Numbered from the stretch's first letter, positions 28,038 to 46,900 are shown. The stretch is 64,000 nucleotides of DNA from an uncultured Gemmatimonadaceae bacterium (GCA_963740355.1 CAVUDW010000003.1:1824001-1888000); one strand, 5' to 3'. Made by a program: numbers and translations. The notes: generated from the letters alone by a model not told the origin.

Positions 28038-28413
28038 GCGCGCACAACGGAGCATGCGCACATTACTCTCGGCGACTACTTGCGAAGCGAAGTGCACAAG
28101 ACAGTGCGATGCGCCCGACGCGCGGCACTGGAGTAGCAGTCAGGACCGGGTCTGTGGAACTCGCTCGAACTGCTCGTGGAGGTGGTCTGTGACGTGCGGC
28201 CCGTTCCGAGGACACCGCGCGCCGACGTTGAGCAGCGGCTCAACGCGAAGGTTGCTTCAGCACAAGGCGTGATGACCATAGAGTTGCTTGATGAAATGCG
28301 ACGCGAGGTAGCGGTCGGCTTTCCGCAACGGGCGCGGCACGCTCTGAGAGCATGCTTCGGCGACGAAGGCAACCACTACTCCCATGTCCTGTTCGACACC
28401 GTGGAACACCGCC

Positions 28414-28833
28414 TCATGTTCGTGCGAACGGCGCGAGATCTGCGAGCGCCAGCCCGGACACCCGACGGAACTCGTTCACGTTCAGCGTCGCTACCTCGCT
28501 GCCCGCTACGAGCGCGGTCGCGGCGATCTGCAGATCGTGCGCGCCGATCAACGCCCCTGCTGCCGCCAGCTCGGTCCAGATCCGTGCGTGCGCGCGTGCT
28601 TCTGCCAGACCGAACGGGATCACCGGTACGTTCTCCAGCACACCCTCGACGAACGCGCTGCGTCGCTGCCGGACGGCGCTGTCACGCGCCCGCTCGACAC
28701 CATGCAGCAACTCGGAGGCGGTGATCGCGGCTACCGCGACAGGGGCGTCACAGAGCGCTGCGAGATAGCCTGGCATGTCGAACGTCCCCCGCTCCGCAGC
28801 AATGAGCACTGCCGTATCGAGGAGGACGCTCAC
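28414..28833 (-). CDS. vapC: PIN-domain toxin (VapC family)
   Basis: LLDTAVLI, TASEL, HDLQIAATAL, TLNVNEF. Confidence 0.9.
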   Translation of the reverse strand: MSVLLDTAVLIAAERGTFDMPGYLAALCDAPVAVAAITASELLHGVERARDSAVRQRRSAFVEGVLENVPVIPFGLAEARAHARIWTELAAAGALIGAHDLQIAATALVAGSEVATLNVNEFRRVSGLALADLAPFART

Positions 28834-28837
28834 CAGG

Positions 28838-29119
28838 TCAGGACCACGGATCGGCCGGCGCTGGAAGCTCGGCGAGCGCCGCACTTATGTCTTCCCCGAA
28901 TGCAGCCGCGTCCGAGGGCGTCAGACGCGGCAACAGCGCCCAGCGATGCGCCAGTTCGGCCGCCGGAATGCCCGATGGCGCCATCGGTGCGACGAAGGCG
29001 ACCGGCACGCCGTTCTTAAGCAATACGGTCGTCTCATGGCGGTAGAACGCCCGATTCACGACGTCGGCGAAGCGGCGGGCGGCGTCGGTAACGGAGAGGG
29101 ACCGGGTCGGACTCGACAT
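28838..29119 (-). CDS. Phd/YefM-family antitoxin
   Basis: SVTDAARRFADVVNR...LLKNGVPVA; immediately upstream of the PIN toxin. Confidence 0.8.
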   Translation of the reverse strand: MSSPTRSLSVTDAARRFADVVNRAFYRHETTVLLKNGVPVAFVAPMAPSGIPAAELAHRWALLPRLTPSDAAAFGEDISAALAELPAPADPWS

Positions 29120-29252
29120 ACACATAATATGATTTTCAGCATACGTCAGCGCAAGCCTCTCTGCGGGACACGCTCGCGCTCAGTGCGGCGGCCTGGAGGC
29201 ACTCGCACTCGCGGGTGCACACCATGCGGCTCACCGGCAGCGTCGCGCTCGA

Positions 29253-31484
29253 TCAGAGCCCCATGGCCCGCAGCAGCTCCGCGTACCGGGGGTGCGCACG
29301 AATCGCATCCGTGGCAAATGGCGGTCGCGTCCACCCGGGGTTCAATGCGTCGCAGCGCTCCACCGATTCGAGTGCGTAGGCGATGGCGTCGTCGACGCGG
29401 CCCAGGTAGCTGGCAGCGATTGCCAGCGCACTGCGCTGAACGGTGTCGACTTCCGCGCGCGCCTGCAGTTCCGCATACGCGGCATCGGCTCGCCGGGCAT
29501 CGCCGTTGATCAGATGCGCCCGTACCAGGAACATCAGGAAGAGCGGATGCCGACCGAACCTGACCAGCATCTCGTTCACCGCCGCAATCGCGGCACTCGC
29601 GTCATCCGAGTTCGTGATTGCAATCGCGCGGCCGTACGCGGCGGTGAAGGAGTCCGCGTCGATTGCCTGCGCACGCTGCGCTTCGGCACGGGCCGCGTCG
29701 GGTTGTCCGGTGAGTGCCAGCACGGCGCTGTGGATGCCGGCGAGGTTGGCACTGAGCGGATCGTCGGCCACGGCGCGTGCGAGTTCCTCGAGGGCCCGCA
29801 CGTCGTCCTGTGCAATGCAGAACAACCCGTTGACGGCGAAGCTGCCACGCACTTCGCTGAGGCGTGGCTGGAGCGCCAGTGCGCGCTCCCACCAGGTGAA
29901 CGCCGCACCGGGATCGTGTTCGATGAACAGGCTGGCGAGCGCCATCGCGCCCATCGCCTCGGCATGTGCGGGGGCCAGCTCGAGGGCACGTGCGAGTGCC
30001 GCCTTCGCCAACGGGTGCCCCTGCGTGACCGACATCAGGCCGTAGCGCACGAAGTTCACCAACGTCTCGCCGAGCAGCGCATGGGCGTCGGCGTTTGACG
30101 GATCGAGACGAATCGCGGCGGCAAAACAATCACGCGCGGCCATCAGGCTGCGCCCGCGCTGCGCGAACAGCGCGCGCCCCTTGGCGACCAGCTCGAACGC
30201 CTCCACCTCGGCCGTCGTGGCCTTCAGCACCGGCTGCGCGGGCGGCACGAACGTGACCTGCAGCCGTGCCGCGATGGCCTGCGCGATTTCGTCCTGCACC
30301 GCAAACACATCCGTGAGTTCGCGGTCGAACCGTTCCGACCAGAGGTGATAGCCGTCAGCCACCGATACGAGCTGCACGGCGATGCGCATGCGATTGGCCG
30401 CCTTGCGCACACTGCCCTGCAGCACCGTGGCGACATTCAGCACCTCCCCGATCTCGGTCAGCGCCACCGCCTTGCCACGGAACGAGAACGCGGAGTTTCG
30501 CGCCGCGACGTGCAGCCCGTCGATCTGGACCAACGCGTCGAGGATATCGTCCGCGATGCCGTCGGCGAAATAGCGGTTGTCGGGCTCGGCGCTGAGGTTC
30601 TCGAATGGCAGGATCGCCAACGATTTGACCGGCGCGGCCGGCGCCTTGGAGCGCGTTTCCCGCTCGTTCAGCGCCGCGATGAACACGGCGGCGGTTTCAT
30701 GGCGATCGACGGCCACGCGCGAGAGGGACTGCTGCACTGCGCGCGAGACTGGTCCCGGCACGCCTTCGCGCAGCGCCGCCACTTCAGGGGGCGTTTGCAC
30801 GAAGCGCTTCGCGATCACGGCCTGTATCGTCGGTCCCGTGAACGGTGGCTCGCCGACTAGCATCTCGTACAGCACGCACCCCAGGCTGTAGAGGTCACTG
30901 CGGCCGTCGACGTCCTCACCCACGGCCTGCTCAGGACTCATGTACGCCGGCGTGCCAACGCTCATGCCCACCTGTGTGAGCGTGTCGCCCGGCGCGTCGT
31001 TGATCGCTTTCCCGATGCCGAAGTCGGCCACCAGCACGTGGCCGTCCTGCAGCATGATGTTCTCTGGCTTGATGTCGCGGTGAATGATGCCGAGGCGATG
31101 CGCGTGCTCGAGTGCACCCGCGACGGCACTCGCGATGCGCACCGCGTCGGCGATGGGTAGCTGGCGCTCGGTCTCGAGGCGATCGCGCAGTGACCGCCCC
31201 TGCACCACCGGCATCACGTAGAACAGGGTGCCGTCTAAATCGCCCGAGTCGTAGAGCGGCAGGATGTGCGGGTGACTGAGCTTCGCAGCGAGCTGGATCT
31301 CACGCAGGAAGCGCTCGCGGCCGACGGTGGCCGCCACGTCGTTTCGCAGGACCTTGATGGCGACGGGGCGGTCGTGCTTCCGGTCGTGTGCGAGGTAGAC
31401 GGTGGCCATGCCGCCCTGACCGAGTTCGCGGTTGAGGCGATAGCGATCGTCGAGGGCCGCAGCCAGGCGATCCAGGGTCGTCAT
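29253..31484 (-). CDS. Ser/Thr protein kinase with TolB-like and TPR domains
   Basis: LGQGGMATVY, VAIK, HRDIKPEN, DFG, GTPAYMSPEQ; SLAILPFENLS module; TPR tail. Confidence 0.92.
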   Translation of the reverse strand: MTTLDRLAAALDDRYRLNRELGQGGMATVYLAHDRKHDRPVAIKVLRNDVAATVGRERFLREIQLAAKLSHPHILPLYDSGDLDGTLFYVMPVVQGRSLRDRLETERQLPIADAVRIASAVAGALEHAHRLGIIHRDIKPENIMLQDGHVLVADFGIGKAINDAPGDTLTQVGMSVGTPAYMSPEQAVGEDVDGRSDLYSLGCVLYEMLVGEPPFTGPTIQAVIAKRFVQTPPEVAALREGVPGPVSRAVQQSLSRVAVDRHETAAVFIAALNERETRSKAPAAPVKSLAILPFENLSAEPDNRYFADGIADDILDALVQIDGLHVAARNSAFSFRGKAVALTEIGEVLNVATVLQGSVRKAANRMRIAVQLVSVADGYHLWSERFDRELTDVFAVQDEIAQAIAARLQVTFVPPAQPVLKATTAEVEAFELVAKGRALFAQRGRSLMAARDCFAAAIRLDPSNADAHALLGETLVNFVRYGLMSVTQGHPLAKAALARALELAPAHAEAMGAMALASLFIEHDPGAAFTWWERALALQPRLSEVRGSFAVNGLFCIAQDDVRALEELARAVADDPLSANLAGIHSAVLALTGQPDAARAEAQRAQAIDADSFTAAYGRAIAITNSDDASAAIAAVNEMLVRFGRHPLFLMFLVRAHLINGDARRADAAYAELQARAEVDTVQRSALAIAASYLGRVDDAIAYALESVERCDALNPGWTRPPFATDAIRAHPRYAELLRAMGL

Positions 31485-31507: not shown

Positions 31508-31921
31508 TCAGCGCGTCGGAACAGGTACAGCCACCACTTCGAGGCCGTCGATCCCGGCAAAGTCATCGGGATTGCACGTGTACACCGGCAGCGCATGCGC
31601 CAGCGCCGTTGCCGCGATCATGGCGTCGTAGGACCGGGCCGCCGTCTTCCGTCCCGACTGCCGGAGTGAGGCAGCCACGCGGCCGAAGGCACGGGCTGCG
31701 CTGGCATCAAAGGGCAGCGCATCGAAATCAGATTCGGCCTGCTGAAGATGCGCCTGTCGCGCCGCGCGCTCCCGATCCGTCGTCGCGACCAGCGGCCCCA
31801 CGGTCAACTCGGCGAGCGTGATCGCGGTGATCAGCGGTTGATCTGGGAGCACCGCTGGATCATCCAGTCGGCCGAGCATGATGACCGTGCTGGTGTCGAG
31901 GATGCCGCGCGCGTGACTCAC
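31508..31921 (-). CDS. vapC: PIN-domain toxin (VapC family)
   Basis: ILDTSTVI, TLAEL, YDAMIAATAL, TCNPDDF. Confidence 0.9.
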   Translation of the reverse strand: MSHARGILDTSTVIMLGRLDDPAVLPDQPLITAITLAELTVGPLVATTDRERAARQAHLQQAESDFDALPFDASAARAFGRVAASLRQSGRKTAARSYDAMIAATALAHALPVYTCNPDDFAGIDGLEVVAVPVPTR

Positions 31922-32166
31922 CCGTCAGCCCACAGTGAGGCGTTCAACACGCGGTCCAGGTCAGCCCGGAGCTGCTGCGCGTCGACAGGCGGCAGCCGGC
32001 GCCACCGCTGGAGCAACGTGGCCGCTGTGAGCCCGCGCCCCGGAATGGGGCGCAGCTCGGCGATAGGTTGGCCGTCCATCGTGACAGTGAGCGTCTCGCC
32101 GCCGGCGACGCGCTGCAGGACTCGGCCACCGTTATTGCGGAGTTCTCGGACGGAGATGTTGTCCAT
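31918..32166 (-). CDS. Phd/YefM-family antitoxin
   Basis: ISVRELRN...VAGGETLTVTMDGQPIAELRP; overlaps the toxin start. Start 32166 or 32181. Confidence 0.85.
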   Translation of the reverse strand: MDNISVRELRNNGGRVLQRVAGGETLTVTMDGQPIAELRPIPGRGLTAATLLQRWRRLPPVDAQQLRADLDRVLNASLWADG

Positions 32167-32261
32167 TCCGGATTGTATCACGCGTGAGACGGCGAGGCAA
32201 GCGTGGTTGTTTTTCGGCCGGTCTCCAGCCCGATCTCAAAACGGGTATACCGACACAGCTC

Positions 32262-32445
32262 CCAGAGCGTGTGCCCGTGGAATGTGAAGTTCACGACCGA
32301 GCTGCGTGAGCCGGCGTTTGCGCCGTGCGACCTCGTCGCCGAGCGCGCGTCGCGCGACGACTCGCGAGCGCTGGCGCGCGAGATCCTGATGATGGAGCCG
32401 GTCGACTAAGCGAATACGTTCAAGGGTAGCGCCATCACGCTCGCA
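32262..32445 (+). pseudogene. queG: queG 3' fragment A
   Basis: First 31 nt match queG 27737-27767 at 30/31; reads QSVCPWNVKFTTELREPAF...LAREILMMEPVD*ANTFKGSAITLA. Confidence 0.9.
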
Positions 32446-32535
32446 GCAGGGATCGCGCGCGGCATCTTCCGCCAATTTCCATGCGGGCGGCGGCGAGTAT
32501 GCGCGCCAGCGACTGGAGGATGCGAACGCGGGAGT

Positions 32536-34725
32536 CTACTTCCAGCGATATCGGAGGGCCACGTTCGCCATGAACCCTTCCAGCGGCGCCCAGACGTCGG
32601 TCGTCCACCGGCCACCCATGCCCCTCGTACGTCGTACCAAGGAGTCAGTATCCGTCTGCCGCACGTTGAGCAGGTTCTCGAAATTGGCCACCAGCTCGAC
32701 GGGTCCAAACTGCTTCGCCGCGATGGCCATCATGTACACGTAGGGCTTCGACGTGGTGCGGAAGGGATTGTCATCGAGAGGCTGTGCGCCAAACCACGTG
32801 CCTTCAATGCCCATGCGATAGACACCGGGGCGCTCGAGCATCAGATCACCGCCCACGCGATGACGCGGCAGCAGCGGCATCGCTTCGCGCGTCCCCGTGA
32901 ATGCATCGGGCCGACTGCCCCGGGAGTAGCCGTAGTTCGCGATGAACTTTCCGCCGGAGAAGCGCCAGACCGCGAGCGTTTCGATGCCGCCGACGCGCGT
33001 GCGCGCTGGGGCATTCTGTAGCAACGTCTCCCCTGCCGTCCCCACCCCGTCAGTCAGTTGCACGGCATCGGCGATGCTCGAGCCATACACGGTGAGCAGG
33101 ACTTCAGCCCGGAGCAGCGTGCCGTTGATGTCCAGCATCGCGCCGAGACTGCGTTCGGGATCGAGCGGTTGCGTCACGCGGACACCACGTAGCCCAGTCG
33201 CCTCCGTCTCTTCAGTCCGTCCAGTCAGTGCCGCGTACCCGTTGCCAACACTGCCGCGCACGGTCCATCCCTCCACTGGACGCGCGAGCAGCGCCACGCG
33301 CTCCGTGAGCTGCAGCCCCGCGTCGGGATGTGCGTCGGCGCGAACACTCGCGGAGACCGTCACGGGGCCGACGCCGCGTTCTGCCGTCACGAAGGCACCG
33401 GGAATGACCCAGCGATGATCGAACGTCGCGTTCAGTACGTTTTTGTAGTTGTCGAGCTGCACGACGCTGCCCAGCACGACTGCGCGCCGCTCCGCATCGA
33501 AGGCGCGCGTGACCTCGAGGAACCCTGTCGTGGTCTCGTCGTCCTCGCGTGCGCCCGGGCCGAACGCCCGCGCCCTCGCGCTGCCTGCAACGGCGAACCG
33601 CATCGACAGGCTGCCGCCCTTCATCGGAAGACGTGCTGTTCCGCCGATGTCGGCGCGCGTGCTGCGAAGCGCTTCGCGAAACGGCGTCCCATCCGGTGCG
33701 TTCGCCCCGCCGACGGTGCCGCCGACCCGATCATCGTATCCGACGCCCACCGTGAGGAACAGCGACCTCCCACGCGAGTCAACCGCGTGCAGTCGTGGAC
33801 GCAGGCTCCACCGCGACGCGCGCGATTGGTCCGCCCAGCCGTCGTCGTCGATGTCCTGCGCCGCCTGCGTCGTGCCGGCTGCAAGCAGCGACACACCAAC
33901 GCCCCTGCCGAAGCGATGACTGAGCCACGTCGCGCCGTCGGTCACGCCCAGCGTGCGGCGATTGAGCAGCAGCTCGTTCTGCCCGGTGGGTGGCTTCGAC
34001 ACCATGTTGATCACGCCACCCAACGCCTGTCCGCCGTACAGCGCCGACGCGGCGCCCTTGATGATCTCGACGCGCTGCAGATCGACCGGCGAGATGTCGA
34101 GCGGGCCCAACGCGCTCGCGCTGGCGCCATAGAGCGGCAACCCATCGGCGAGCATGACGGTGTACTGGCCCGGCAGTCCGAGAATACGCACGCTTCCCGT
34201 GCCCAGTCCGGGCGCTGCCGCCTGCACACGCAGCCCTGGCGTTTCGTTGAGCAGCATGCTGATGCCGCTGGGAGACATCAGCGTCTTCTCGTCGACTTCC
34301 ATCTCGTCGACGACTTCGACGCGGATCGGCGATGCACCGGCCAGACGTTCGATGCGCGTCGCGCTCACGCGCACCTCCGGCATTTGCATGGCCATCTCGC
34401 CCATTGCCGTGTTGCTCATGGTCGCGGTCACGATGACGGTGACTAGGCTATCGCGAACCACTCGCGTGGTGAGGCGGATGGGGGCGAAACCGATGCGCGT
34501 GACGGTGATGAGATGGCTTCCGACTGGCAGCACGAGCCGTGCAACGCCAGCGCTATCGCTCACGGCGCTCCGCCCGACCGACTGCACGAGAAAGCCCGCG
34601 ATCATTCCCATGGATTCCTGCACGGTGACGTGGACGCGTCCACTGTCGGCTTGCTGGCCGGAGAGCGGCGTGGCGCCAACGAGCAACGCGACAATGGCGA
34701 GCAGAGCGAGCAGTCGGTGCGTCAT
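32536..34725 (-). CDS. TonB-dependent receptor
   Basis: Signal peptide; plug LNETPGLRVQ and RVEIIKGAASALYGGQALGGVIN; FENLLN near the C terminus. Confidence 0.9.
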   Translation of the reverse strand: MTHRLLALLAIVALLVGATPLSGQQADSGRVHVTVQESMGMIAGFLVQSVGRSAVSDSAGVARLVLPVGSHLITVTRIGFAPIRLTTRVVRDSLVTVIVTATMSNTAMGEMAMQMPEVRVSATRIERLAGASPIRVEVVDEMEVDEKTLMSPSGISMLLNETPGLRVQAAAPGLGTGSVRILGLPGQYTVMLADGLPLYGASASALGPLDISPVDLQRVEIIKGAASALYGGQALGGVINMVSKPPTGQNELLLNRRTLGVTDGATWLSHRFGRGVGVSLLAAGTTQAAQDIDDDGWADQSRASRWSLRPRLHAVDSRGRSLFLTVGVGYDDRVGGTVGGANAPDGTPFREALRSTRADIGGTARLPMKGGSLSMRFAVAGSARARAFGPGAREDDETTTGFLEVTRAFDAERRAVVLGSVVQLDNYKNVLNATFDHRWVIPGAFVTAERGVGPVTVSASVRADAHPDAGLQLTERVALLARPVEGWTVRGSVGNGYAALTGRTEETEATGLRGVRVTQPLDPERSLGAMLDINGTLLRAEVLLTVYGSSIADAVQLTDGVGTAGETLLQNAPARTRVGGIETLAVWRFSGGKFIANYGYSRGSRPDAFTGTREAMPLLPRHRVGGDLMLERPGVYRMGIEGTWFGAQPLDDNPFRTTSKPYVYMMAIAAKQFGPVELVANFENLLNVRQTDTDSLVRRTRGMGGRWTTDVWAPLEGFMANVALRYRWK

Positions 34726-34784
34726 GTGTGAACGTTAGCAGCCGTCAGCAACTCGCGGCTCGTGGCACGATCCCGCCTCCCGTG

Positions 34785-34881
34785 TCGCAGAATCTTTCAC
34801 GGACTCGCCGTTCCGGGCGCGATCGTTTTTGGACGGGAAAGACGCGCTGACGCTGGCGATGCCGCGGTGGTGCTGGAGAAC
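34785..34881 (+). pseudogene. queG: queG 3' fragment B (internally deleted)
   Basis: DSPFRARSFLDGKDALTLA joined to AAVVLEN; queG has DSPFNTREFIAGKDAVTLA...NATVVLSN. Confidence 0.75.
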
Positions 34882-35157
34882 TCGAGCAGGGAGCGCCCGG
34901 CGGCGCGCATGGTCTGGCGTTCTGGGTTCAGAATCGAGGAACGATCATGGACCCTGACCGCATGGCTTCGACGGGCATGCTGCCGGACTACCCGTCAACC
35001 ATGGACCCGGGCAATACCGTCGCAAGTGACTAGGAATGTCCTATTCGTCGTGTTCGCCATGCGGCGAATTCCGTATGGGCGCAGCACCTAGGCTGGCGGC
35101 GTCATACGAAAGAATCGCTAGCTTTCGTCGCATGACGCTTCCACACGCCAGCGCCCA

Positions 35158-36096
35158 ATGAGCGCCGGCCTCCTCGCACTCGTCGACGATCTCACCGCCC
35201 TCGCCAAGCTCGTCGCATCCTCCGTGGACGATGCCGCAGCGCAGGGCAGCAAAGCCATCGGCAAGGCCTCGGGCATCGTGATCGACGATGCCGCCGTGAC
35301 GCCACGTTACGTGATCGGATACGCGGCCGACCGTGAACTGCCGATCATCGCGAAGATCGCCAAGGGTTCGCTGGTCAACAAGCTGGTGATCCTGACGCCG
35401 GTCTGCCTGCTGCTGAACAGACTGGCGCCATGGCTGCTGACGCCGCTGCTCATGCTCGGCGGCCTCTATCTCGCCTTCGAAGGCTACGTGAAGGTGATGG
35501 AAATGGTACGAGGCAAGACGGTGACGACCGCTTCCGCAGCGGGTACGACGGCGGAGACTGGCGCCGCATCCGAAAAGGCGAAGGTCGCCGGCGCCGTGCG
35601 CACCGACTTCATCCTGTCGGCCGAGATCATGGCCATCACGCTCGCGACCGTGGCCACGGCGCCGTTCGTGACGCAGGTAGTCGTCCTGGTGCTCGTGGGC
35701 ATCGGCATGACTGTGCTGGTGTACGGCACCGTGGCGCTGATCGTGAAGGCCGACGACTTCGGCGCCTATCTCGCGCAGACGGGCAGTGGTGCCGCGCGCG
35801 CACTCGGTCGCGGTATCGTGGTCGGGATGCCGAAGCTGCTGGCCGCGCTCGGCTTCGTCGGCATGCTGGCGATGCTCTGGGTCGGTGGCGGCATCATCAC
35901 GCACGGCCTGCATGAACTCGGCGTGCATGGGCCGGAGGAGTTCGTGCAGCACCTCGGCGCGCTGGCAGGCGGCGCGGTGCCTGCGATGGCGGGTGCCGTG
36001 TCCTGGCTCGTGACGGCCGCAATCTCCGCCGTCATCGGTCTCGCGCTCGGCGCGATCGTCTCACCGATCGGACACAGGGTGCTGCCGGCGCACTGA
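35158..36096 (+). CDS. DUF808 family inner-membrane protein
   Basis: GLLALVDD, GIVIDDAAVTP, RELPII, GAVRTDFILSAEIM, AMLWVGGGI. Confidence 0.88.
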   Translation: MSAGLLALVDDLTALAKLVASSVDDAAAQGSKAIGKASGIVIDDAAVTPRYVIGYAADRELPIIAKIAKGSLVNKLVILTPVCLLLNRLAPWLLTPLLMLGGLYLAFEGYVKVMEMVRGKTVTTASAAGTTAETGAASEKAKVAGAVRTDFILSAEIMAITLATVATAPFVTQVVVLVLVGIGMTVLVYGTVALIVKADDFGAYLAQTGSGAARALGRGIVVGMPKLLAALGFVGMLAMLWVGGGIITHGLHELGVHGPEEFVQHLGALAGGAVPAMAGAVSWLVTAAISAVIGLALGAIVSPIGHRVLPAH

Positions 36097-36123
36097 CGTC
36101 GCGCGCTGTTTGTTCTCAGCGTC

Positions 36124-36380
36124 AGAACTTGCGGGTGTAGCCGACACGAACGACCTGCCTCTCCAGGCAGTCGGTGCGCAGCAGTTGAAAGTTCGTCAAG
36201 CGGATCGTGCGTCGCCTGATTCGTGTTCAGCACGTCAGTGGCGTTGACCACGATCTCACCCTTGCCACTTTGTACCGAGACTTTCGCTCGAAGATCGCGC
36301 GAAAAGCGGCTGCCGATGCGGCCCTGCGGCAGCAGGTCCGGCGCGAGATACTCGCCCGACACCTGCGCTTGCCTGTCATG
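36124..36380 (-). pseudogene. Frameshifted C-terminal remnant of an outer-membrane beta-barrel/TonB-type receptor
   Basis: YLAPDLLPQGRIGSRFS...GKGEIVVNATDVLNT, then in another frame RQVVRVGYTRKF*; no 5' part. Confidence 0.6.
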
Positions 36381-36400
36381 GGGCAGTCGCAACACGGGCG

Positions 36401-36553
36401 CGGGAGTTCATCGCGGAGAAAGACTTGCGCACGCTGGCGCAGGACATCCTCGCGCCGGATCGGGAGCAGTTCAGCGCGGCGCTCCGGAAGTCACCGATGA
36501 AGCGGGCGATATTGGCTGGATTGCGGCGGAATGCGGCTTTGGTGGTCACCAAC
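36401..36553 (+). pseudogene. queG: queG 3' fragment C
   Basis: REFIAEKDLRTLAQDILAPDREQFSAALRKSPMKRAILAGLRRNAALVVTN, collinear with queG 27804-27956. Confidence 0.92.
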
Positions 36554-36905
36554 GATGCCGAACGGTGACGTTCGTCAGGCGCGACCCATTCTCGTGGCCT
36601 GAAGTCATTGCGCCAGTGATGGTTTCCGTGTGAGCGCGGCCGGACGAGACGTCACCACCGGGCACGCGGGAATGCGTGCGTCAGACCGGCTGACACGGTT
36701 TCCACGACGCTCCGAGTCAAGTCGCAGACCCCACGCTACGTGGCCAACCGGTCGAGGCCGTCTTCGCCCGCGAGAGAATACGCCTCCATGACGCGGAGCA
36801 GGAACTTTGTACTGAAACTTCCGTACGTCATGCCACGCGTGACCCATCCGACAGGCAGCCTCTTTGTCACACTCGACGTCGTCTCCTCTCTCACCCGACA
36901 GCCCG

Positions 36906-38135
36906 ATGACCATCAGCATGCTCGTCCGGTCTTTGATCGCCGCGGCGTTATTCGCACTGCCCGCCGTTGCTCAATCGTCGAGAGCACGTTCGGACGGGCG
37001 AGTGGAAATTTCGATCAACTCGACTGTGCTCGGTGCGAGTCGACGCGTCATTCTCGCGCCACCATACGGCGGAACGAGTACCGAGGCGCATGCGGTGCTG
37101 CTGCTGCTCGACGCGGATGACGAGCCGCAGTTCAACGCCGCTGTCGCGAACATCCGCTTCCTCGAGGATCGTGGAGCGATCCCGCGGCTGCTCGTTGTGG
37201 GTATTCCGAATGGTGCGACGCGCAATCGAGACCTTGCCCCCGCAGCAACCATGCAGACAAATGTCGCAGATCCGGCATTACGCGAGGGCCCGGAACGTTT
37301 CGCTCGCTTCCTCGAGTCGGAGGCGCTGCCCGCAGTACGCGCGAGGTTTCGTACCCTTCCGTACACGGTCATTGCCGGACACTCGCTTGGCGCGCTCTTC
37401 GTATTGCAGCTGATCGCGAACCGACCCGGACCCTACGCAGCGGCGATTGCGATGAGTCCGTCGCTGTGGTGGAGCAATGGCGCGCTCGGTGCGCCGTTCG
37501 CCGATGCCATCAAGCGTCTGCGATCGCCGTTTCGCTTATTTGTGTCGAGTGGTGCGTTCGAGCCGCGCATAGACAAGCCGACGCAGCAGTTCATCGCGAC
37601 ATTGGAATCCAACCCACCATTGGGTTCGCTCGACTTTCGGTCGCGACACTACCTGGACGACTCTCACGCTCTCACACCGCTCGTGAGCCTGACTGACGGG
37701 CTACGCTTCATCTTCGAACCGATCGGCTTGGCCGTCAGCGCGATGAACAAGCTTGACGGCGAGTCCGATTCCACGAGCATCGTCACGGCATTCTCCGGCG
37801 TGACGAAGCGCTACTCGGCCGGCGCAAGGGCAATCGGCCTGGATACGTTGCTCCCGGAGTCCTTCGCCCTCCAATCGGGCGCGTCCGTGCTGCGGAATAT
37901 GCAGAAGCCTGGCGCCGCGCGTGTCATTCTCAACTGGGCCGTGCAGGCCTATCCTCAGTCTGCCGCCGCCCACGAAACGTTCGCCGACGCGCTGGTAGCC
38001 GCTGGTGACACTTTGCTGGCCCACACGGAATACGCGCGAGCGATCGTGCTCGCGAGTGCTGCCGGCGATTCGTCGGTCAGTGGCATTCGCGCCAAGCAGC
38101 GCGCCATCAAGCAACCGGTTCCACCGCCCCGCTGA
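36906..38135 (+). CDS. Secreted alpha/beta hydrolase (IroE/Fes-like esterase) with TPR-like tail
   Basis: Signal peptide; RNRDL, GHSLG, SPSLWW. Confidence 0.85.
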   Translation: MTISMLVRSLIAAALFALPAVAQSSRARSDGRVEISINSTVLGASRRVILAPPYGGTSTEAHAVLLLLDADDEPQFNAAVANIRFLEDRGAIPRLLVVGIPNGATRNRDLAPAATMQTNVADPALREGPERFARFLESEALPAVRARFRTLPYTVIAGHSLGALFVLQLIANRPGPYAAAIAMSPSLWWSNGALGAPFADAIKRLRSPFRLFVSSGAFEPRIDKPTQQFIATLESNPPLGSLDFRSRHYLDDSHALTPLVSLTDGLRFIFEPIGLAVSAMNKLDGESDSTSIVTAFSGVTKRYSAGARAIGLDTLLPESFALQSGASVLRNMQKPGAARVILNWAVQAYPQSAAAHETFADALVAAGDTLLAHTEYARAIVLASAAGDSSVSGIRAKQRAIKQPVPPPR

Positions 38136-38172
38136 TTCGCGACACGATTCGTCGCAGGCAGCAGCAGCCAGT

Positions 38173-38232
38173 CCCCTGGAACGCGCACATCAGAAGAACG
38201 CGCACATGTCCAGCGCGACGCCGTAGTCGCCG
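38173..38232 (+). pseudogene. Possible highly eroded queG 3' fragment D
   Basis: CCCTGGAAC (PWN) and GTCCAGCGCGACGCCGTAGTCGCCG versus queG GTTCAGCGCAACGTTCCGTAAGTCGCCG. Confidence 0.4.
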
Positions 38233-38428
38233 CGCATTGCAGCACCCCAGAAGCCGAGCGAGGTGCGCCCGTATGCGCATCGATGCGGTTTCGTGGCGCG
38301 AAAGGGGAGTGCGCCGTGATCCCTCGAAACTTTGGCGCCCCGTAGCCACGCACGCACGTCGGCCTACGGCTCGCAACGACCCACTCGTCCCGTGCGGCGT
38401 CCGTGTCGCCCCTTCGCGGTGACACCGA

Positions 38429-38980
38429 TTGCCGCGCGCACCTACGTTCGGCGCATCCCCAACCCCGAACAGGAGCGCATCATCATGCCCACTGCTATGG
38501 ATCGTCACCATCGTCGCGCGTGCGAGGCTCTCGGCGGTGTCCGGTGCCGCGCTGGCCGCCACCCTGCTGGCAGCTGGGACGGCGCGAGCGCAGTCGACAC
38601 GGTCACTGGCCGTTACGCGCCCCGCGCAGGCCGCTGCAGATACGACCATTCTTTCGAGCGGCCCTGACCTGCAGGGGCTCTGGGACTTCGCAATGCGCGT
38701 AGGCGACCGACCGTCCACCGGCTTCTTCGCGCTCGGCCCCGTCGAACGGGGATGGGCTGGCTCGCTCACGCCATACCTCACGAACACGCTGGCGATCCGC
38801 CTGCTCACCGTGGACGGGGACTCGGTGCGGATGGTCGTTGCGTCGCGGGAGGGCGATGTGCGATTTCATGGGCGGCTGACCGACAACGGACGCACGATGG
38901 AAGGCATCGTGGACTATCACGGCGGCGTGCGCGTTCCGATGACGGCCACGCGCCGCGCCCAGCCTGTCGCGCCACGCTGA
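38429..38980 (+). CDS. Hypothetical secreted protein (start uncertain)
   Basis: Signal-like ALAATLLAAGTARAQ; beta-rich domain; upstream of LytS/LytTR. Confidence 0.55.
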   Translation: MPRAPTFGASPTPNRSASSCPLLWIVTIVARARLSAVSGAALAATLLAAGTARAQSTRSLAVTRPAQAAADTTILSSGPDLQGLWDFAMRVGDRPSTGFFALGPVERGWAGSLTPYLTNTLAIRLLTVDGDSVRMVVASREGDVRFHGRLTDNGRTMEGIVDYHGGVRVPMTATRRAQPVAPR

Positions 38981-38990
38981 GCCCAGCCGC

Positions 38991-40199
38991 ATGAGCGGAA
39001 TGGCCGTCCCCAATGCCCTTGATCGCACCGAGTCCCTCCCCGGATACTCAAAGGTGACGACACGCGCGCAAGAACTGGGGGATGTCGGCTCTTCGGAGTC
39101 GGCCACGGAGCGGCGTATCGTCCCGGTGGGGGCCGTCGTGCTGACGACGTTCTTTGCCCTGCTCTACGGGCTGCGCGGCAGCATCGCGGCCCTCGACCGT
39201 GGCGAGGATCCGCGCTGGGCGCAGCAGGTCGGCTGGTCACTCGCCATGTGGTGGACCTGCCTGCCACTGCTACCGCCGCTGGCGTCCCTCGTCCACCGGT
39301 TCCCGGTGGGACGCCCGCATCCGTGGAGGAACGCCGGCATCCTGCTGCTCGGCACGGCGACGGCCGCCTGGCTCCGGCACGTTGTGATGACCCCGGTCGT
39401 GGTGGCGATCACCGGTGTCCCCGACGTAGCGGCGAGCGCTGCCGCGCGGACTCTCACGTACTTCACCGTCTTCCTCGTGATGGTCGCGCTCCTCCACGCC
39501 TCTCACTACTACCGCGCGGAACGAGCCCGTGCAGTGCGCGAGGCAGCCCTTGCCCGAGGGCTCGCCGAGGCGCGGCTCGCCGCGCTGCGGACGCAACTGC
39601 ATCCGCACTTCGTCTTCAACGTGCTCAATGCGGTCACGACCCTCCTGCACGCCGACCCGATGGCGGCCGACCGAATGCTGACCCGCTTCGCGGCTCTATT
39701 GCGCGAGATACTGCACGAGGGGGCAGAAGAGCACGCGCTCGAGCGCGAGCTCGAGTTGTTGGCGCGCTACGTCGAACTGATGCAACTGCGTTTCGGTGAC
39801 CGCATCGTCGTGGAATGGGCCGTGGCCGATGCACCACTCGGCGCACGCGTGCCCTTTCTGGTCTTGCAGCCGCTGGTCGAGAACGCCTACGAACACGGGC
39901 TTGGCGGACGGGAAACGGGCGGACGCGTGCAGATCAGCGCGACACGCGCGGGCGACAGGCTTGAACTCGTCGTCGAGGACGATGGCGCGGGTCTCAGCGC
40001 TGAGGCAGGGTCGATCATCGGTCGAGGGAATGCGGAAACGGGTACTGGTATCGGCCTGCGCAACACGCGCGATCGCCTCGTGCAGCTCTACGGCGCGCAC
40101 GCCTCACTCGTGCTGGAGCGACCGTCGGATGGCGGTACGCGCGCGCGGGTGACGCTGCCGTTGATCGATGGACCGCACAGAAACGGGGCGCATCCATGA
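38991..40199 (+). CDS. LytS/YehU-family sensor histidine kinase
   Basis: TM helices; QLHPHFVFNVLN, LQPLVENA, VEDDG, GIGLRN. Confidence 0.9.
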   Translation: MSGMAVPNALDRTESLPGYSKVTTRAQELGDVGSSESATERRIVPVGAVVLTTFFALLYGLRGSIAALDRGEDPRWAQQVGWSLAMWWTCLPLLPPLASLVHRFPVGRPHPWRNAGILLLGTATAAWLRHVVMTPVVVAITGVPDVAASAAARTLTYFTVFLVMVALLHASHYYRAERARAVREAALARGLAEARLAALRTQLHPHFVFNVLNAVTTLLHADPMAADRMLTRFAALLREILHEGAEEHALERELELLARYVELMQLRFGDRIVVEWAVADAPLGARVPFLVLQPLVENAYEHGLGGRETGGRVQISATRAGDRLELVVEDDGAGLSAEAGSIIGRGNAETGTGIGLRNTRDRLVQLYGAHASLVLERPSDGGTRARVTLPLIDGPHRNGAHP

Positions 40200-41113
40200 A
40201 CGAACCGACGCGCGATCGGCGCGCGAGTCTTGCCGCCGAAAATCGAGGTTCCTGGAAGGTGCTGATTGCCGATGACGAGCCCCTCGCGCGCGCGCGCCTG
40301 CGTGCGCTGCTTGCGCGACATCCCGAGTTCGAGCTCACGGCGGAATGCGGAAGCGGCGCGGCGGTTCTCGCTGCGCTCCGCAACGGCCCCGCCGATGTGC
40401 TGCTCCTGGACATCCGCATGCCCGGCCTCGATGGCATCGCGACGGTGGAGGCTCTTGCCCAGGAAGCGCCATGGTCGGTGGAGCGGCCCCCATGCGTCGT
40501 CTTCGTCACGGCGAGCGAGGAGCACGCGATCCGTGCATTCGATCTGGATGCGGTCGACTACCTCGTGAAGCCGGTCGACATCGATCGCTTCGATCGGGCG
40601 ATGCGGCGACTGCTCGAGACGCTCGGGTCACCGTCCCACGCCCCCGATGCCGCAGCCATCGCGGCGGCCGATGCGGCGCTTCGGGGCGCGCTGCAGGCCC
40701 TGCATGGCGACGCGCCCGCGCCAGCCAGCGGCATCGCCGGGGGCTCCGCCTCCCACGCACGAACTGGGGCCGTATCGGAGGACAGGTATGCGAAGCGATT
40801 CGTGATCCGCGACGCGCGAGGGATGCATTTCGTGGCCGTCGCGGACGTCGACCGTGTCGAGGCGGAGGGCAACTACGTGGCGGTCTTCGCCGCGGGGCGA
40901 CGGCATCTCGTGCGTGAGTCGCTCAATGCCATCGCATCGCGGCTCGACCCGGCGGAGTTTGTGCGGGTGCATCGGTCGCATGTCGTACGGATCGACCGGA
41001 TTCGCCGCCTGGAACCCTGTGGCCATGGCGAGTACGACCTCACGCTGGGAGACGGCACCCGACTGACCTCGAGCCGGAGCTATCGGGAGCAAGTACGGCG
41101 ACTGCTCCGCTGA
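40196..41113 (+). CDS. LytTR-family response regulator
   Basis: IADDEPLAR, LLDIRMP, DYLVKP, FVRVHRS. Confidence 0.92.
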   Translation: MNEPTRDRRASLAAENRGSWKVLIADDEPLARARLRALLARHPEFELTAECGSGAAVLAALRNGPADVLLLDIRMPGLDGIATVEALAQEAPWSVERPPCVVFVTASEEHAIRAFDLDAVDYLVKPVDIDRFDRAMRRLLETLGSPSHAPDAAAIAAADAALRGALQALHGDAPAPASGIAGGSASHARTGAVSEDRYAKRFVIRDARGMHFVAVADVDRVEAEGNYVAVFAAGRRHLVRESLNAIASRLDPAEFVRVHRSHVVRIDRIRRLEPCGHGEYDLTLGDGTRLTSSRSYREQVRRLLR

Positions 41114-41209
41114 CGGAAGCGCGAGCCATGCTGCGAAATGCCGTGGGCATCACACGATGACGCGGTCGTCAGAAGACACGCGGGACCCGTGTCGGGACGC
41201 GGCAGCCGC

Positions 41210-41296
41210 GAGCTCAGCGCGGCGTTCCGGGAGTCACCGATGAAGCGGGCGAAGTTGGCGGAGCTCAGGCGGAATGCGGAGGTCGTACTCACCAAT
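41210..41296 (+). pseudogene. queG: queG 3' fragment E
   Basis: ELSAAFRESPMKRAKLAELRRNAEVVLTN, collinear with queG 27870-27956. Confidence 0.9.
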
Positions 41297-41383
41297 GCCG
41301 AGGCATGATCACGACGAAGTGAGACCGCCGGGGCTGCATGCATCGCCGCGCGCACCATGACGCTCGCCGCAACGGTCTGTCAT

Positions 41384-41779
41384 TCACAGCGACAAAGGAA
41401 CGAGTCGTGCGCGAATCCAGTCGGCCAGCAGCGCCTCCGTGACTTCTCCTCCCGCCAAGGCGACCATCATCTGCACCACATCCACCTCGGTCGCAGACAG
41501 CTCCTTCCCATTGAGTCCGAGGAAGGCCATCATCGTGACGAAAGCAGTGCGCTTGTTCCCATCGCTGAATGGATGCGCGCGCGCGAGTCCAAAGGCATAG
41601 GCTGCCGCCAGCGAGGCAAGGTCGGATGCCGGCTCGTAGGACCACTGCTGCCGTGCACGAGCAAGCGCGTCCTCGAGAGCGTTCTCGTCCCGGACGCCGG
41701 CGAGCCCTCCGTGCTCCCGCAGCTGATCGAGATGGATGGAATCCACGACGATACGCGGCACCCAGCGGGGCTCTCGCAT
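41384..41779 (-). CDS. doc: Doc (death-on-curing, Fic-family) toxin
   Basis: HGGLAGVRD, HPFSDGNKRTA. Confidence 0.92.
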   Translation of the reverse strand: MREPRWVPRIVVDSIHLDQLREHGGLAGVRDENALEDALARARQQWSYEPASDLASLAAAYAFGLARAHPFSDGNKRTAFVTMMAFLGLNGKELSATEVDVVQMMVALAGGEVTEALLADWIRARLVPLSL

Positions 41780-41788
41780 GACGCCGGT

Positions 41789-42016
41789 CTACTTGGCCAG
41801 CTCGCGCAACGCGTTGCGGTATTTCTTCGCCGCATGGGCCGCGACCGCGAGTCCAGCCTCGACGTCGGGATCGAACGGTGTCAGGAGAATCCCCTGTGCA
41901 GTCTCGATGGCGAGTACGCGGTCGCCCGCCTCGAGGTGGAGGCGGTCGGCCATATCCTTCGGGATGGTCGCACCAATCGACCCGCCCACCTGGCGCAGTG
42001 TCAGTTCACGGACCAT
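41789..42016 (-). CDS. AbrB/MazE-like antitoxin
   Basis: LRQVGGSIGATIPK, LTPFDP, YRNALRELAK; upstream of doc. Confidence 0.85.
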   Translation of the reverse strand: MVRELTLRQVGGSIGATIPKDMADRLHLEAGDRVLAIETAQGILLTPFDPDVEAGLAVAAHAAKKYRNALRELAK

Positions 42017-42221
42017 CGGTACACCCGCATCATCGGGATTACACCAGAGATTATCGCCAGAACGAAAGTAGCATTATTATGCTACCGATGCAAGCACGCC
42101 CTGCCGGCAGCGTGAGAACGCAGAGAGTGAGGCAATCATCACACCGCGACGGCGTCCGCCGACGGACGGTCCGGGCTCCTACGTTGAGCGGGATCTCAAA
42201 ACGGTTATGCCGACACATCGC

Positions 42222-42420
42222 CCAGGCCGTCTGCCCGTGGAGCATGAAGTGCTCGCAGGAACTGGCGTAGGACTTCACGTTCCGGGAGCGGGCGTTCATC
42301 GCAGGGAAGGATGTCGAGACGCTGGCGTCAGACATCGTGGCGCTGGACCAGAACGTGTTCAGCGCGGCCTTCCGGAAGTCGCCGATGAAGCGGGCGATGC
42401 TCGTTCGGTTGCAGCCCAGT
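42222..42420 (+). pseudogene. queG: queG 3' fragment F
   Basis: QAVCPWSMKCSQELA*DFTFRERAFIAGKDVETLASDIVALDQNVFSAAFRKSPMKRAML; in-frame TAG at 42268. Confidence 0.92.
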
Positions 42421-42484
42421 GTCACGCGCCGGCTGTACCCTCGCCACAGCTCCGTGCGACGTCATGGACAGCGCGCGTCACCTG

Positions 42485-42514
42485 ATGAGCCGGTTTGCGC
42501 AGCATTCGGGTTCT
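42485..42514 (+). promoter_or_regulatory. Candidate ECF-type promoter, copy 1
   Basis: ATGAGCCGGTTT-N9-TCGGGTTCT; the same bipartite motif occurs at 48842-48871 (minus). Confidence 0.5.
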
Positions 42515-43925: not shown

Positions 43926-46900
43926 TCAGGAGCCGCCGGAGCCTCGCTGCCCGGCGGCGGCCGCTGCAGCGAAGGGCACGCCGGTGACGCCCGGCCCCTC
44001 AAGCAGCGCGCGATACCATTCACGCGACTCACTGGACCGGCCGCTCCGATGCAGGCAGTCGGCCAGCGCGAGGCGCTCGGGATACTGGCTGAGAACGGGG
44101 TGCCGTGCGCGCAACGACGTCGGGAGGTCGAGCATCGCCTGCTGAAACGCGCCAAGCGCGCCGGCCACGTCGCCGCCGCGCAGCATGCGGTGGCCCGTCA
44201 GCGCGGCGAGCAATGGCGCTGCGACCCGCGAGGGTGTCGCTGATCGCGTCGCCAGCGCACGGAGGGCTCCGGCCAACCCGGTCGAATCGCTGATCCGGAT
44301 GCTCAGCATGCCGAGCAGATATTCCCGCACGTCGCGCTGCTCACGTCCCGTGAGCCCACTGCCCGCATCCACCGGGGTGACGCGGCGTGTCAGGAGTTCG
44401 TTGCGCAGCGAGCGAAGACTGTCGACGGCGATCGTGACGGATGGCGCCAGCGCGAAGAAGGCGCGATCGTCCACACCGCGTGCCGGATCGAGCCCCTCGG
44501 CGATTCGGAACCGCGACGAGGCCGCGACCCAGTTGCCGTCGGCGACATCCAGTGCCGCGAGGGCCCGCAGTCCTTCCGCCCGCGTGTCGGGGGTGGGAGC
44601 TGCCGCCATGGTGTTGGCGTAGGCACGCGCTGCTGAGCGATCGCGCAAGTCGTTCCCGATGCGCTGCAGACCGACGCGGGCGATAGCGGGGTCATCGCGC
44701 AGGTCGACCGGAAGCGTGTTCGCCGGCGCACCAGCGATGCGTCGGCGGTAGAGCGCCATGTACGCCGCACGGATGCCTGGCTGCTCACCGGCGCTGTTGG
44801 GACTGAAGTACATGCTGTACAGCGTGTCGAGCTGGCCGAGCCGATTGGCCTTGGCAGCGAGATCCATCAGGTACACCGTCACTTCGCGATTGCGCGGATC
44901 GAGCGCCATGACCGACTGGAATGCCTTGCCCGCATCCTGAATCGACCGGCCGCGATAGGGATTGCTGCCGAACTGCGTTTCGCCGAGCAGCATCCACGCC
45001 TCGACATCAGTCGGATAGTCGCGGACCATCTGCGCCAGCCGTCGCTCGGCAGCCGTCGGGCTACCGAAGCGCAGATCGTGATAGGCGCGGATCAACGCCT
45101 GCTGACGCGGCGGCAAGGTGCTCGCCAGATCGTATGCACGTTGGGCCGCCGATGAACTGAGGGATTCCACTTCGTTCCAGCGGGCGGCGCGGGCGAGGCG
45201 ATACCATGCCAACGCGAACTGCGAATCGGCCGCCACCGCTTGCTGAAAGTTCTCGACGGCTGCCGCCGGGCGCGCATCGCGAAGCTCGCGCTCGCCGTCG
45301 AGGAAGGCGCGCAATGCGCGCGATGACGATGTCGTCGCCGCGGCGATGCCGGCGACAGTATCAGCGGGCGCCAGCAGTGCGCTGGCGATGAGCTGGCGCA
45401 CGATCGCGTCGACGCCTCGCGCCAGGCTGGCCGTATCGTCCACGGCAGCGAAGGCGCGACCGATCTCACGGCCGTCGATACTGCGCAACGAGGCGCGGAA
45501 GCTGAGCATCCGGCCGCTCTTGACGAGACTCCCGACGACGTATCGATGGGCTTTCACGCGGACCGCAAGCGCACGCGCATCTGCGGAATCGAGCGTCGTG
45601 GCCCCATCGGTGCCCGCCGCGCCGATGATGGTGTTGGGATCGATGCCGCGGACGAGGCCCGTGCCATCGAACGCCGGCGTGAGCAGGTCGACCATCCCCT
45701 CACGCAGGTACGCGATGTCACTGCCGCCACGCGTCGAGAACGGAAGGATGGCGAGCGTCGGCAACGGCTCGTCGGTTCGCACGACTTCCACCGCTGGCGG
45801 CGACACGCCTGCGGCGGGCGTTCGCCGCGTCCACCACGCCGCACCAGCCAGCGCCGCCGCGACGGTGAGGGCAACGAGCGGCGTGCGAACACCACGCGTA
45901 CGGTGCGCCGACGTCGGGAGCGAGCGTGCTGCCTCGCTGTCAGGTGGCAGTTGGACGTCGCGCACGGGCACCGTGGTCCCTGGCATCGCCTGCAACGCCG
46001 CGAGGACGGCGGCGCCGTCGGCGGGCCGGTCATCGGGTGCGGCGCTCAGCATGCGCCGGATCACGGCTGCAAAGGCTGGCGTCGGAGTCGTTCCATCCAG
46101 GCGTGCGAGCGGCGGTAGCGGCCCGTCGATGATCGCGGCGGCGAGGGTCTCCGGGTCGGCCCCGGTGAACGGGCGCCGACCGGTCACCATCTCGAAGAAC
46201 GTGACCCCGAGCGCCCACACGTCGGCGCGCGCACTGCGCGGGGCGCCACGCCAGAGCTCGGGGGCGAGGTATGGGAGTGTCCCGATCAGCCCCTGCCCGC
46301 TCAGCGATGCCGCCTCGTGTTCATGCACGGCGACACCAAAATCGAGCAGACGCGCAACATCACCCTCACCGAAGCCGACATTCGCCGGCTTGATGTCACC
46401 ATGCACGATCCCGGCGTGGTGTGCGCTGGCAAGGCCACGTGCGAGATGATTCGCGATCGTCATCACGTCATCGAGTGTCAGCAGGCCACTGCGCAAGCGA
46501 TCGCGCAGCGTGCCACCGGCGCAGAAGGCCATCACGATGCAGAGTGCACCGTCGGCCGTCGATTCGATCGCGTAAATGGCGCAGACGTGCGGGTCATCGA
46601 GTCGCGACGCCGCCTGCGCTTCGCGGACGAGCCGTGCGCGAGCCACCGCATCGCCGCTCACTGATGGCGCGAGCACCTTGATCGCCACGTCGCGTTCGAG
46701 GAGTGTGTCGCGCCCCCGATAGACGATGCCCGCACCGCCGCTGCCGATCCGCTCGTGCACGACGAAGTGCCGGATGCGGTCCCCGGGCGCGACGACGTCG
46801 GTGCGCGGCGCATCGTGGTCCGGAGACTGCGTGTCGCGCAGGTCATCATGTGCCAGCGCGGGCTGGATGATGTCCGCATGCAGTTCGTCGAGAAATGCTG

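Follow-up and report, generated by a model that had tools for sequence, protein, structure and literature searches.

A conserved arm at displaced queG 3' ends of Gemmatimonadaceae is very probably the element half of a serine recombinase attachment site

A stretch of 64,000 nucleotides from an uncultured Gemmatimonadaceae bacterium (GCA_963740355.1, CAVUDW010000003.1:1824001-1888000), hereafter the window, contains an intact queG gene followed by an array of displaced queG 3' ends, two of which are preceded by nearly the same 26-bp motif. Comparison of the window with its own genome (G000; 5,447,502 bases) and with 201 genomes of the family indicated that this motif is very probably the P half-site (about 26 bp) of the attP site of mobile elements that were inserted into queG by a family of large serine recombinases (LSRs). 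The evidence lies in the anatomy of the sites, the occurrence of four site types, the adjacency of an LSR gene in relatives and the inverted repeat formed by the two element half-sites, P and P', all of which were observed directly. Typed from their half-sites, both copies in the window are attR sites (P + CA + B', where B and B' denote host-type half-sites), and with three further queG fragments that lack an arm they make up an accretion array, now decayed, behind a queG of attB type.

The 26-mers occupy positions 32232-32257 and 42192-42217, both on the + strand, and are identical at 24 of 26 positions. A degenerate pattern with up to 3 mismatches matched the window at just these two sites and gave no match in 100 shuffles, and the same two sites were the only ones in the whole genome when up to 6 substitutions were allowed. 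These searches bore out the initial annotation, which had described two copies at the same queG breakpoint, and its placement of the start of homology was also correct, as each 26-mer is followed by 4 nt, by CCAG and then by coding sequence homologous to the 3' part of queG. The motif is likewise absent, as had been stated, from the intact queG of the window (26913/27057-28037, + strand; sequence inspected) and was found in 0/9 intact queG genes. Pfam assignments confirmed that the left neighbors belong to different toxin-antitoxin (TA) families (Phd/PIN at 31508-32181 and MazE-like/Doc at 41384-42016), and the view that the motif is not a shared TA operator was supported by kinases, regulators, metabolic genes and other cargo that also adjoin it. 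The conserved sequence foreign to queG, referred to here as the arm, exceeds 26 nt and covers about 32203-32262 (arm 1) and 42163-42222 (arm 2).

A 24-nt pattern with up to 3 mismatches, the reversed form of which gave no match in any genome, located the motif in 8/201 family genomes, i.e., all 5 genomes of the window's genus together with G061, G112 and G158. The copies were co-oriented, spaced 0.8-10 kb apart and numbered at least 19 in G010, at least 7 in G132 and 4 in G083. Every copy consisted of the motif, then TCTCCCAG and then queG 3' coding sequence, so the scan of related genomes proposed at the outset found copies that abut queG fragments. In a separate search, QueG residues 276-348 alone served as the tblastn query and the arm therefore had no role in finding fragments. 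This search recovered 43 fragments with a 5' boundary from 8 Gemmatimonadaceae genomes, and apart from 3 that were intact genes, 40/40 carried the arm at the identical junction. The earlier suggestion of an element end or att arm is thus supported, the motif being the element-derived half of an attR-type junction that falls on the same nucleotide in all 40 displaced 3' ends. The junction pattern also matched 73 further loci in public assemblies (a collection with a single genome for each species), and nearly all of them bear the title Gemmatimonadaceae, Gemmatimonadales or Gemmatimonadota; 4 of these loci were in otherwise named bins (Phycisphaerales, Sphingomonadales and two on one Acidimicrobiia contig). 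The same pattern had no match in viral contigs, where the 4 matches of a shorter pattern all fell in one unrelated coding sequence. Displaced units lay downstream of the intact queG and on the same strand in 7/7 genomes with both on one contig (G000, G083, G132, G010, G061, G112 and G039).

With positions numbered from AAACGG inside the motif, the conserved non-queG arm extends from about -36 to +23 (approximately 60 nt). Among 95 distinct units, positions -4 to +23 were near-invariant, a result partly forced by how the units were found, and positions outside the search patterns were conserved in 88-97% of units at -30/-29 (GT), -21/-20 (CC), -18/-17 (GT), -12/-11 (AG) and -6 (A). From +24 onward the sequence shows the rhythm of a coding sequence, with variable third codon positions. 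The Cys codon is TGC or TGT in the intact gene and always TCC in arms, and the base directly before CA differs between arms and heads (i.e., the intact queG genes at the head of arrays) in G083, G098 and G132. These differences place the exchange point at or to the right of CA of the Gln codon in the Fe-S motif YGCDICQ. A short hairpin (..TAAC..N11..GTTA..) at -60 to -26, ending at a conserved GTYCG box, was noted in 13/95 units (e.g., L020, L027 and L029), about twice the frequency in shuffles, and a TAG on the LSR strand at -52 in 29/95 units.

Two kinds of half-site were found to the right of CA. In 6/6 queG genes adjacent to an LSR gene the sequence is CC(G/A)T(A/T)(T/C)AACC(G/A)TAA (protein P-Y/F-N-R/H-K), and in heads without an LSR as well as in displaced units it is CCGTGGAACGTGAAG (protein PWNVK). 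The former, P', is the inverted counterpart of the arm. Thus, identity between the arm and the reverse complement of the G132 P' averaged 19.4/26 over 93 units compared with 6.9 for shuffled sequences, and was 19/26 for arm 1 and 18/26 for arm 2 of the window, while the arm and P' of G061 itself agreed at 21/22 inner positions. P and P' also co-vary between elements, as G061 has ATGG and CACCTCC on both sides and other elements are without them.

All four combinations of half-sites were seen (B+B', P+P', B+P' and P+B'), and attB, attP, attL and attR therefore all exist. The attB form (B+B') is that of the heads of G000, G083 and G112, which lack an LSR, and attL (B+P') that of the 6 LSR-adjacent heads. 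The attR form (P+B') comprises the 95 units, 78 of them clear and 17 degenerate, with a P' right half in 0/95. For attP, the predicted contiguous pattern (P-CA-P') matched two metagenome contigs, L143 and L144, both with an antisense LSR gene beside arm-CA-P', and in the attP contig the arm is present without the 5' part of queG upstream. An ACGG box lies 14-17 nt from the center in B and 19-22 nt in P; on the right side, B' has CCGT at 11-14 and P' has it twice, at 11-14 and 19-22. In serine integrases, according to PMC3783163, the motif bound by the zinc-ribbon domain is shifted by 5 bp between half-sites and is closer to the center in the host half-site. The spacing of ACGG is suggestive of the same 5-bp shift, though it is no more than suggestive.

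A search for the Resolvase domain in five genomes gave matches in G061 and G132 immediately behind the intact queG. In G061, an open reading frame (ORF) of 822 aa with PF00239 (Resolvase) and PF07508 (Recombinase) begins approximately 1.3 kb downstream of the intact queG and runs antisense (L131:1567-4035) so as to overlap the queG 3' end; in G132, an LSR gene at the same place is split in two. The G061 segment from queG to the first arm, approximately 23 kb, also encodes an AAA ATPase, a Rep_1 protein, a second resolvase, a DNA methylase and a helicase-like gene product. Family-wide, close homologs that cover the catalytic N-terminus were found in G061, G107, G098, G039, G073 and G132, all of which run into the antisense of an intact queG, and partial copies were found in G164, G190 and G018. 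Many other matches of this search cover just residues 560-822 or so, i.e., queG read backwards. The family-wide LSR tally, like that of integrases below, takes in G007, G034 and G134, which are flagged as unpublished and on which no specific claim rests. Neither the Resolvase-domain search nor the search for remnants detected an LSR in G083. In the six genomes with an LSR-adjacent queG (G039, G061, G073, G098, G107 and G132), this gene is the only queG and encodes CP(Y/F)N(R/H)KF as opposed to CPWNVKF elsewhere; the element alters two residues right after the second Fe-S motif of QueG.

The reading frame of the LSR is itself tied to the site. Of 68 LSR homologs in the protein database, mostly 700-750 aa long and one named by its source as from Gemmatirosa kalamazoonensis, 58 have close to their C-terminus the string ..YG(H/Q)TS, as encoded by the P' half-site when read in antisense. 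The protein stops at that point in 28 of these 58 sequences and six residues further on in 20, continues in 8 and has a WE.. tail in 2, such that 56/58 stop at the junction, stop six residues on or continue into the antisense of the 5' part of queG. In the integrated state, stop codons at the junction or six codons later are supplied to the LSR frame by the antisense of queG, whereas in the attP state (L143:240-280) the frame has 34 more codons (WEMCRYNRF..). Because the frame crosses the crossover, the C-terminus of the LSR differs between the two states. The LSR-strand frame is open from -50 to +26 in 85/95 units, and in the distal arm it is the best conserved of the six frames (mean identity 0.34, stops in 6/95 units). 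Conservation of the distal arm may thus reflect its coding for the LSR tail in the free state, and that of the proximal 26 nt a predicted function as the site bound by the LSR.

These observations point to the LSR as the likely catalyst of integration into queG and to CA as the probable crossover dinucleotide. Crossover by the LSR would take place at the CA of the YGCDICQ Gln codon or immediately to its right, and the incoming element would supply its own queG 3' end with a P' half-site, encoding CP(Y/F)N(R/H)KF, to form attL. Since the element brings this replacement 3' end, the gene would stay whole, and the old 3' end would be displaced to the far end of the element, where the element's P arm would now precede it as attR. 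In the window, the two attR copies belong to a 15-kb array of five displaced 3' ends, three of which later lost their arm through deletion. The head queG has its site center at 27738-27739 (CA of the Gln codon) with host-type half-sites (B + B', reading CPWNVKF) as typed against LSR-adjacent queG genes, and looks like an unoccupied attB. With an attB-type head and no LSR in the genome, the two motifs would be fossil scars rather than active sites. Tandem accretion is evident from the five fragments of the window, at least 7 in G132, at least 19 in G010 and 3 behind the LSR element of G039. Decay is evident from the split LSR of G132, the LSR remnant that follows a B'-type unit in G010 (C77), the partial copies in G164 and G190 and the lack of any copy in G000 and G083, and also from arm-less fragments of the window that have counterparts with arms in G083. 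The same cargo was found in different arrays, indicating reshuffling, and TA modules would outlast the decay of elements owing to their resistance to deletion.

Multiplication of scars calls for an additional step. Canonical serine integrases recombine attP with attB only, and attL is not a substrate. Integration into attB therefore explains one attR but not many behind a B+B' head, and integration into attL would leave P+P' units, in contrast with the 0/95 displaced units that carry P'. Scars could accumulate by repeated integration after the head reverts to B+B', by Campbell-type insertion of one-unit circles through homologous recombination within the queG 3' repeats of 225-400 bp or by non-canonical action of the LSR on P+B' units; repeated integration into a regenerated attB, homologous recombination among these repeats or both are the putative source.

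Several results weigh against the interpretation of the motif as an LSR half-site. Besides the failure of canonical attP x attB rules alone to yield many P+B' scars behind a B+B' head, the link to an LSR comes from relatives, as the window's own genome gave 0 matches to PF00239 and no tblastn remnant. The crossover dinucleotide was deduced from symmetry, the data bracketing it between CA and the 14th base on its right. On L143, the LSR gene seems frameshifted and the contig is too short to tell whether the site lies on a free circle. Cassettes as small as 0.8-1.1 kb (G010, C135) are hard to view as independently decayed elements of 23-27 kb, and linkage of cargo with the left or right queG part followed no consistent pattern (14 left-sharing and 4 right-sharing pairs). 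Conservation of the motif core is, moreover, partly forced by the use of motif patterns to find units, a bias from which the flanking positions and the QueG-only search are free.

The arm-queG units might be more than scars and still function in an integron-like cassette system operated by the serine recombinase, although we consider this rather unlikely. The LSR element at the head would then pair the head site with any downstream P+B' unit and thereby cut out, take up and re-insert cassette blocks, which it would carry from genome to genome. The queG array would in that case be a shared cassette reservoir in which the C-terminal tail of the LSR, differing between free and integrated states, acts as a switch. 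A rival explanation, in which the units belong to a self-standing integron-like system (with a recombinase that is unknown or acts in trans, or with purely homologous recombination) and LSR elements merely share the hot spot, appears improbable. It accords with the short cassettes, with the recurrence of cargo in different arrays and with the absence of a recombinase among 161 array ORFs of at least 75 aa (G132, G083 and G010) and among the 27 ORFs scanned at 23-49.5 kb of the window, and homologous integration of a unit-bearing circle would be expected to reproduce exactly the observed combination of P+B' units and B+B' heads. Such a system does not, however, account for an arm that is an inverted repeat of P' inside LSR-linked queG ends and co-varies with it, for the existence of attP and attL forms or for LSR remnants inside arrays, and pure homologous recombination offers no reason for a near-invariant non-queG arm beside varying third codon positions.

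Recognition of the motif by a tyrosine recombinase, either XerC/XerD on a dif-like site or an integron integrase on an attI/attC-like site, is very improbable. The initial annotation had likened the minus strand to a XerC-type half-site, and the resemblance is loose; the genome does encode Xer-like recombinases and an integron integrase (TIGR02249, 386 bits), and the latter is present in 8/8 motif-bearing genomes. This co-occurrence is uninformative, however, because the integrase gene was found in 132/201 family genomes (E <= 1e-30; 115 over the cut-off) and does not track a motif found in 8. The XerC-type proposal failed on the lack of a XerD-like arm and of a matching spacer, on comparison with the genome's single dif candidate (C2:2388975), which the motif does not resemble, and on the absence of a tyrosine recombinase near arrays in 8 genomes. 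An HMM built from the approximately 95-nt attC sites of the genome gave 27 matches in the genome and none in the queG array, an ungapped fold of 45 units on either strand gave no consensus hairpin and an upstream stem of at least 6 bp was found in 13/95 units as opposed to 5.6% of shuffles. It is scarcely credible that the motif is diverged upstream queG coding sequence from a donor lineage, the scenario named at the outset as one that would refute an att arm, or an operator of divergent TA operons. The arm has patchy similarity to the 5' side of queG (GAGCGGGAT, ACGG and ATCT), and in the window it is found both times upstream of a TA operon with divergent transcription. Yet the donor scenario is rejected by the 0/9 intact queG genes with the motif, the invariable TCC at the Cys codon of arms and the attP contig in which the arm lacks the queG 5' part; tblastn extensions upstream of the arm (residues 227-273) were spurious, with no real similarity to QueG. 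Many non-TA cargos adjoin arms, and conservation of the distal arm is highest for the peptide read from the opposite (LSR) strand.

Membership of the array in an integron was rejected, as intI lies approximately 0.49 Mb away with its own attC array and the queG array has neither an attC match nor a consensus fold. A XerCD/dif-type site (28 bp, consisting of a XerC arm, a 6-bp spacer and a XerD arm) was also rejected since the motif has no XerD-like arm or matching spacer, and promoter and operator readings of the motif were judged by eye only and dropped. G000 has a canonical chromosomal integron at C3:2327941-2344244, with the integrase at 2343144-2344244 (- strand) and at least 18 attC sites of approximately 95 nt at C3:2327941-2341783, on the 3' side of the integrase (i.e., an inverted arrangement); further attC matches are scattered over C2 and C3. 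Only one dif-like 28-mer is present in this genome (C2:2388975-2389002), and it is 18 kb from a Xer-type recombinase gene (C2:2407027-2407968).

Among known systems, the attachment sites of serine integrases (Listeria A118/LI, phiC31 and Bxb1), as described in PMC3783163, are alike in an attP of approximately 50 bp that forms an imperfect inverted repeat around a central dinucleotide, in hybrid attL and attR sites after integration and in an LSR gene beside attP; a recognition box 5 bp nearer the center on the host side than on the element side is a suggestive further likeness. An LSR gene was likewise found beside the site in G061, G132, G107, G098, G039 and G073, though not in the window's own genome. 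In contrast with those integrases, the target at queG consists of codons of an Fe-S motif, the element carries a replacement queG 3' end of 225-400 bp, the LSR frame traverses that end in antisense and extends past the crossover, with a C-terminus that changes on integration, and up to about 20 attR scars stand in tandem.

Composite islands of the staphylococcal SCC/SCCmec type, moved by Ccr serine recombinases, occupy the 3' end of rlmH (orfX). As at queG, an RNA-modification gene has its 3' end targeted and restored by serine recombinase elements, and accretion in tandem leaves behind remnants that lack a recombinase and are bounded by target-site repeats. The hosts and recombinases are nevertheless unrelated, the repeat is about 280 bp at queG as opposed to about 15-20 bp and TA modules and Ser/Thr kinases predominate in the queG cargo; we do not assign the queG elements to the SCC family. 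Phage 21 and e14 at icd of Escherichia coli, and the accretion of integrative and conjugative elements (ICEs) and cis-mobilizable elements (CIMEs) at gene 3' ends, likewise involve a substitute 3' end carried by the element, an old end left as a pseudogene at the far junction and tandem accretion, with tyrosine integrases in place of the LSR and palindromic attP of queG. The match with SCC and ICE/CIME accretion is one of architecture and not of family. Sedentary chromosomal integrons are similar in their co-oriented cassettes separated by a repeated site, entry beside a fixed anchor and many TA modules. They differ in that the queG array has no intI, its repeat is half of a double-strand serine integrase site plus a gene fragment and not a folded attC, and its cassettes are multi-gene with genes in both orientations.

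A literature search for queG or epoxyqueuosine reductase together with serine recombinase, attB or integron, and for Gemmatimonad attC, returned nothing on queG as an integration target. The arrays are widespread in soil and freshwater Gemmatimonadaceae, and with attB, attP, attL and attR defined for a new family of LSRs, which has at least 68 members, the system is open to direct testing and offers a further candidate serine integrase for genome engineering. The arrays also represent a major hot spot for the gain of genes (TA modules, kinases and regulators) in a poorly studied phylum and pose the mechanistic question of how many attR scars come to lie behind an attB-type target despite a strictly directional integrase.

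Within the window, a tblastn search with the window's own QueG located five queG 3' fragments, all on the + strand and within 15 kb downstream of the intact gene (TIGR00276, 291 bits; Pfam Fer4_16 and QueG_DUF1730). Only the first and last keep their 5' boundary, and the motif is present only at these two. Arm 1 (32203-32262, + strand), which corresponds to the conserved -36 to +23 and consists of the P half-site with its distal conserved tail, leads into fragment 1 (32263-32460, + strand; tblastn match 32230-32460, QueG residues 264-340, and translation). This fragment starts with the center CA at 32263-32264, has a B'-type half-site and a stop at 32409 and is truncated on its 3' side, and arm and fragment together are, by their half-sites, an attR-type scar. 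The three fragments without an arm are all truncated at the 5' end and on the + strand. They comprise a weak match at 34790-34906 (E 0.002-0.03, residues 288-326), whose counterpart in G083 is the queG portion of a unit with an arm, and matches at 36401-36553 (residues 298-348, 71% identity) and 41210-41305 (residues 320-351, 75% identity). Arm 2 (42163-42222, + strand), likewise a P half-site with distal tail by alignment of conserved arms, precedes fragment 5, the last scar of the array (42223-42495, + strand, residues 276-368; tblastn match 42217-42495, residues 274-368, and translation), which starts with the center CA at 42223-42224 and has a degenerate B'-type half-site and an in-frame TAG.

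Genes between the fragments encode a PIN module, a Ser/Thr kinase, a Phd/PIN pair, a TonB-dependent receptor, a DUF808 protein, an esterase, a LytS/LytTR pair and a MazE-like/Doc pair. Directly downstream of queG, a Pfam PIN toxin with a small upstream ORF (VapBC-like; 28414-29125, - strand) has 82% DNA identity to a G010 cassette (C20) in which the arm is still present. The block in which it lies between queG and the kinase (28038-29252) is followed by no arm or queG fragment and is absent at this place in G083. The kinase, which has TPR repeats (29253-31484, - strand; Pfam Pkinase, 3.8e-50), occupies the same position in G083. Next to it, the module that abuts arm 1 is composed of a PIN toxin (31508-31921) and a Phd/YefM-like antitoxin (31918-32181), both on the - strand by Pfam, and with its flank also adjoins arms in G083, G158, G010 and G171. 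The DUF808 gene (35158-36096; Pfam) lies upstream of the fragment at 36401-36553 in a block 93% identical to one in the G083 array. An ORF that overlaps the end of this gene (35766-36395, - strand) matches just the last 60 positions of the OMP_b-brl_3 profile and is probably a gene remnant or shadow ORF. Arm 2 is abutted by a Doc (Fic) toxin (41384-41779) and a MazE/AbrB-type antitoxin (41789-42016), again on the - strand by Pfam. In the cargo of the G010, G083 and G132 arrays and of the window (29253-31484 and 43926-47102), Ser/Thr kinases that carry PD40 or TPR repeats are strikingly abundant, and so are type II TA modules (VapBC, MazEF, BrnTA, HigB, Doc and DUF4160/DUF2442).

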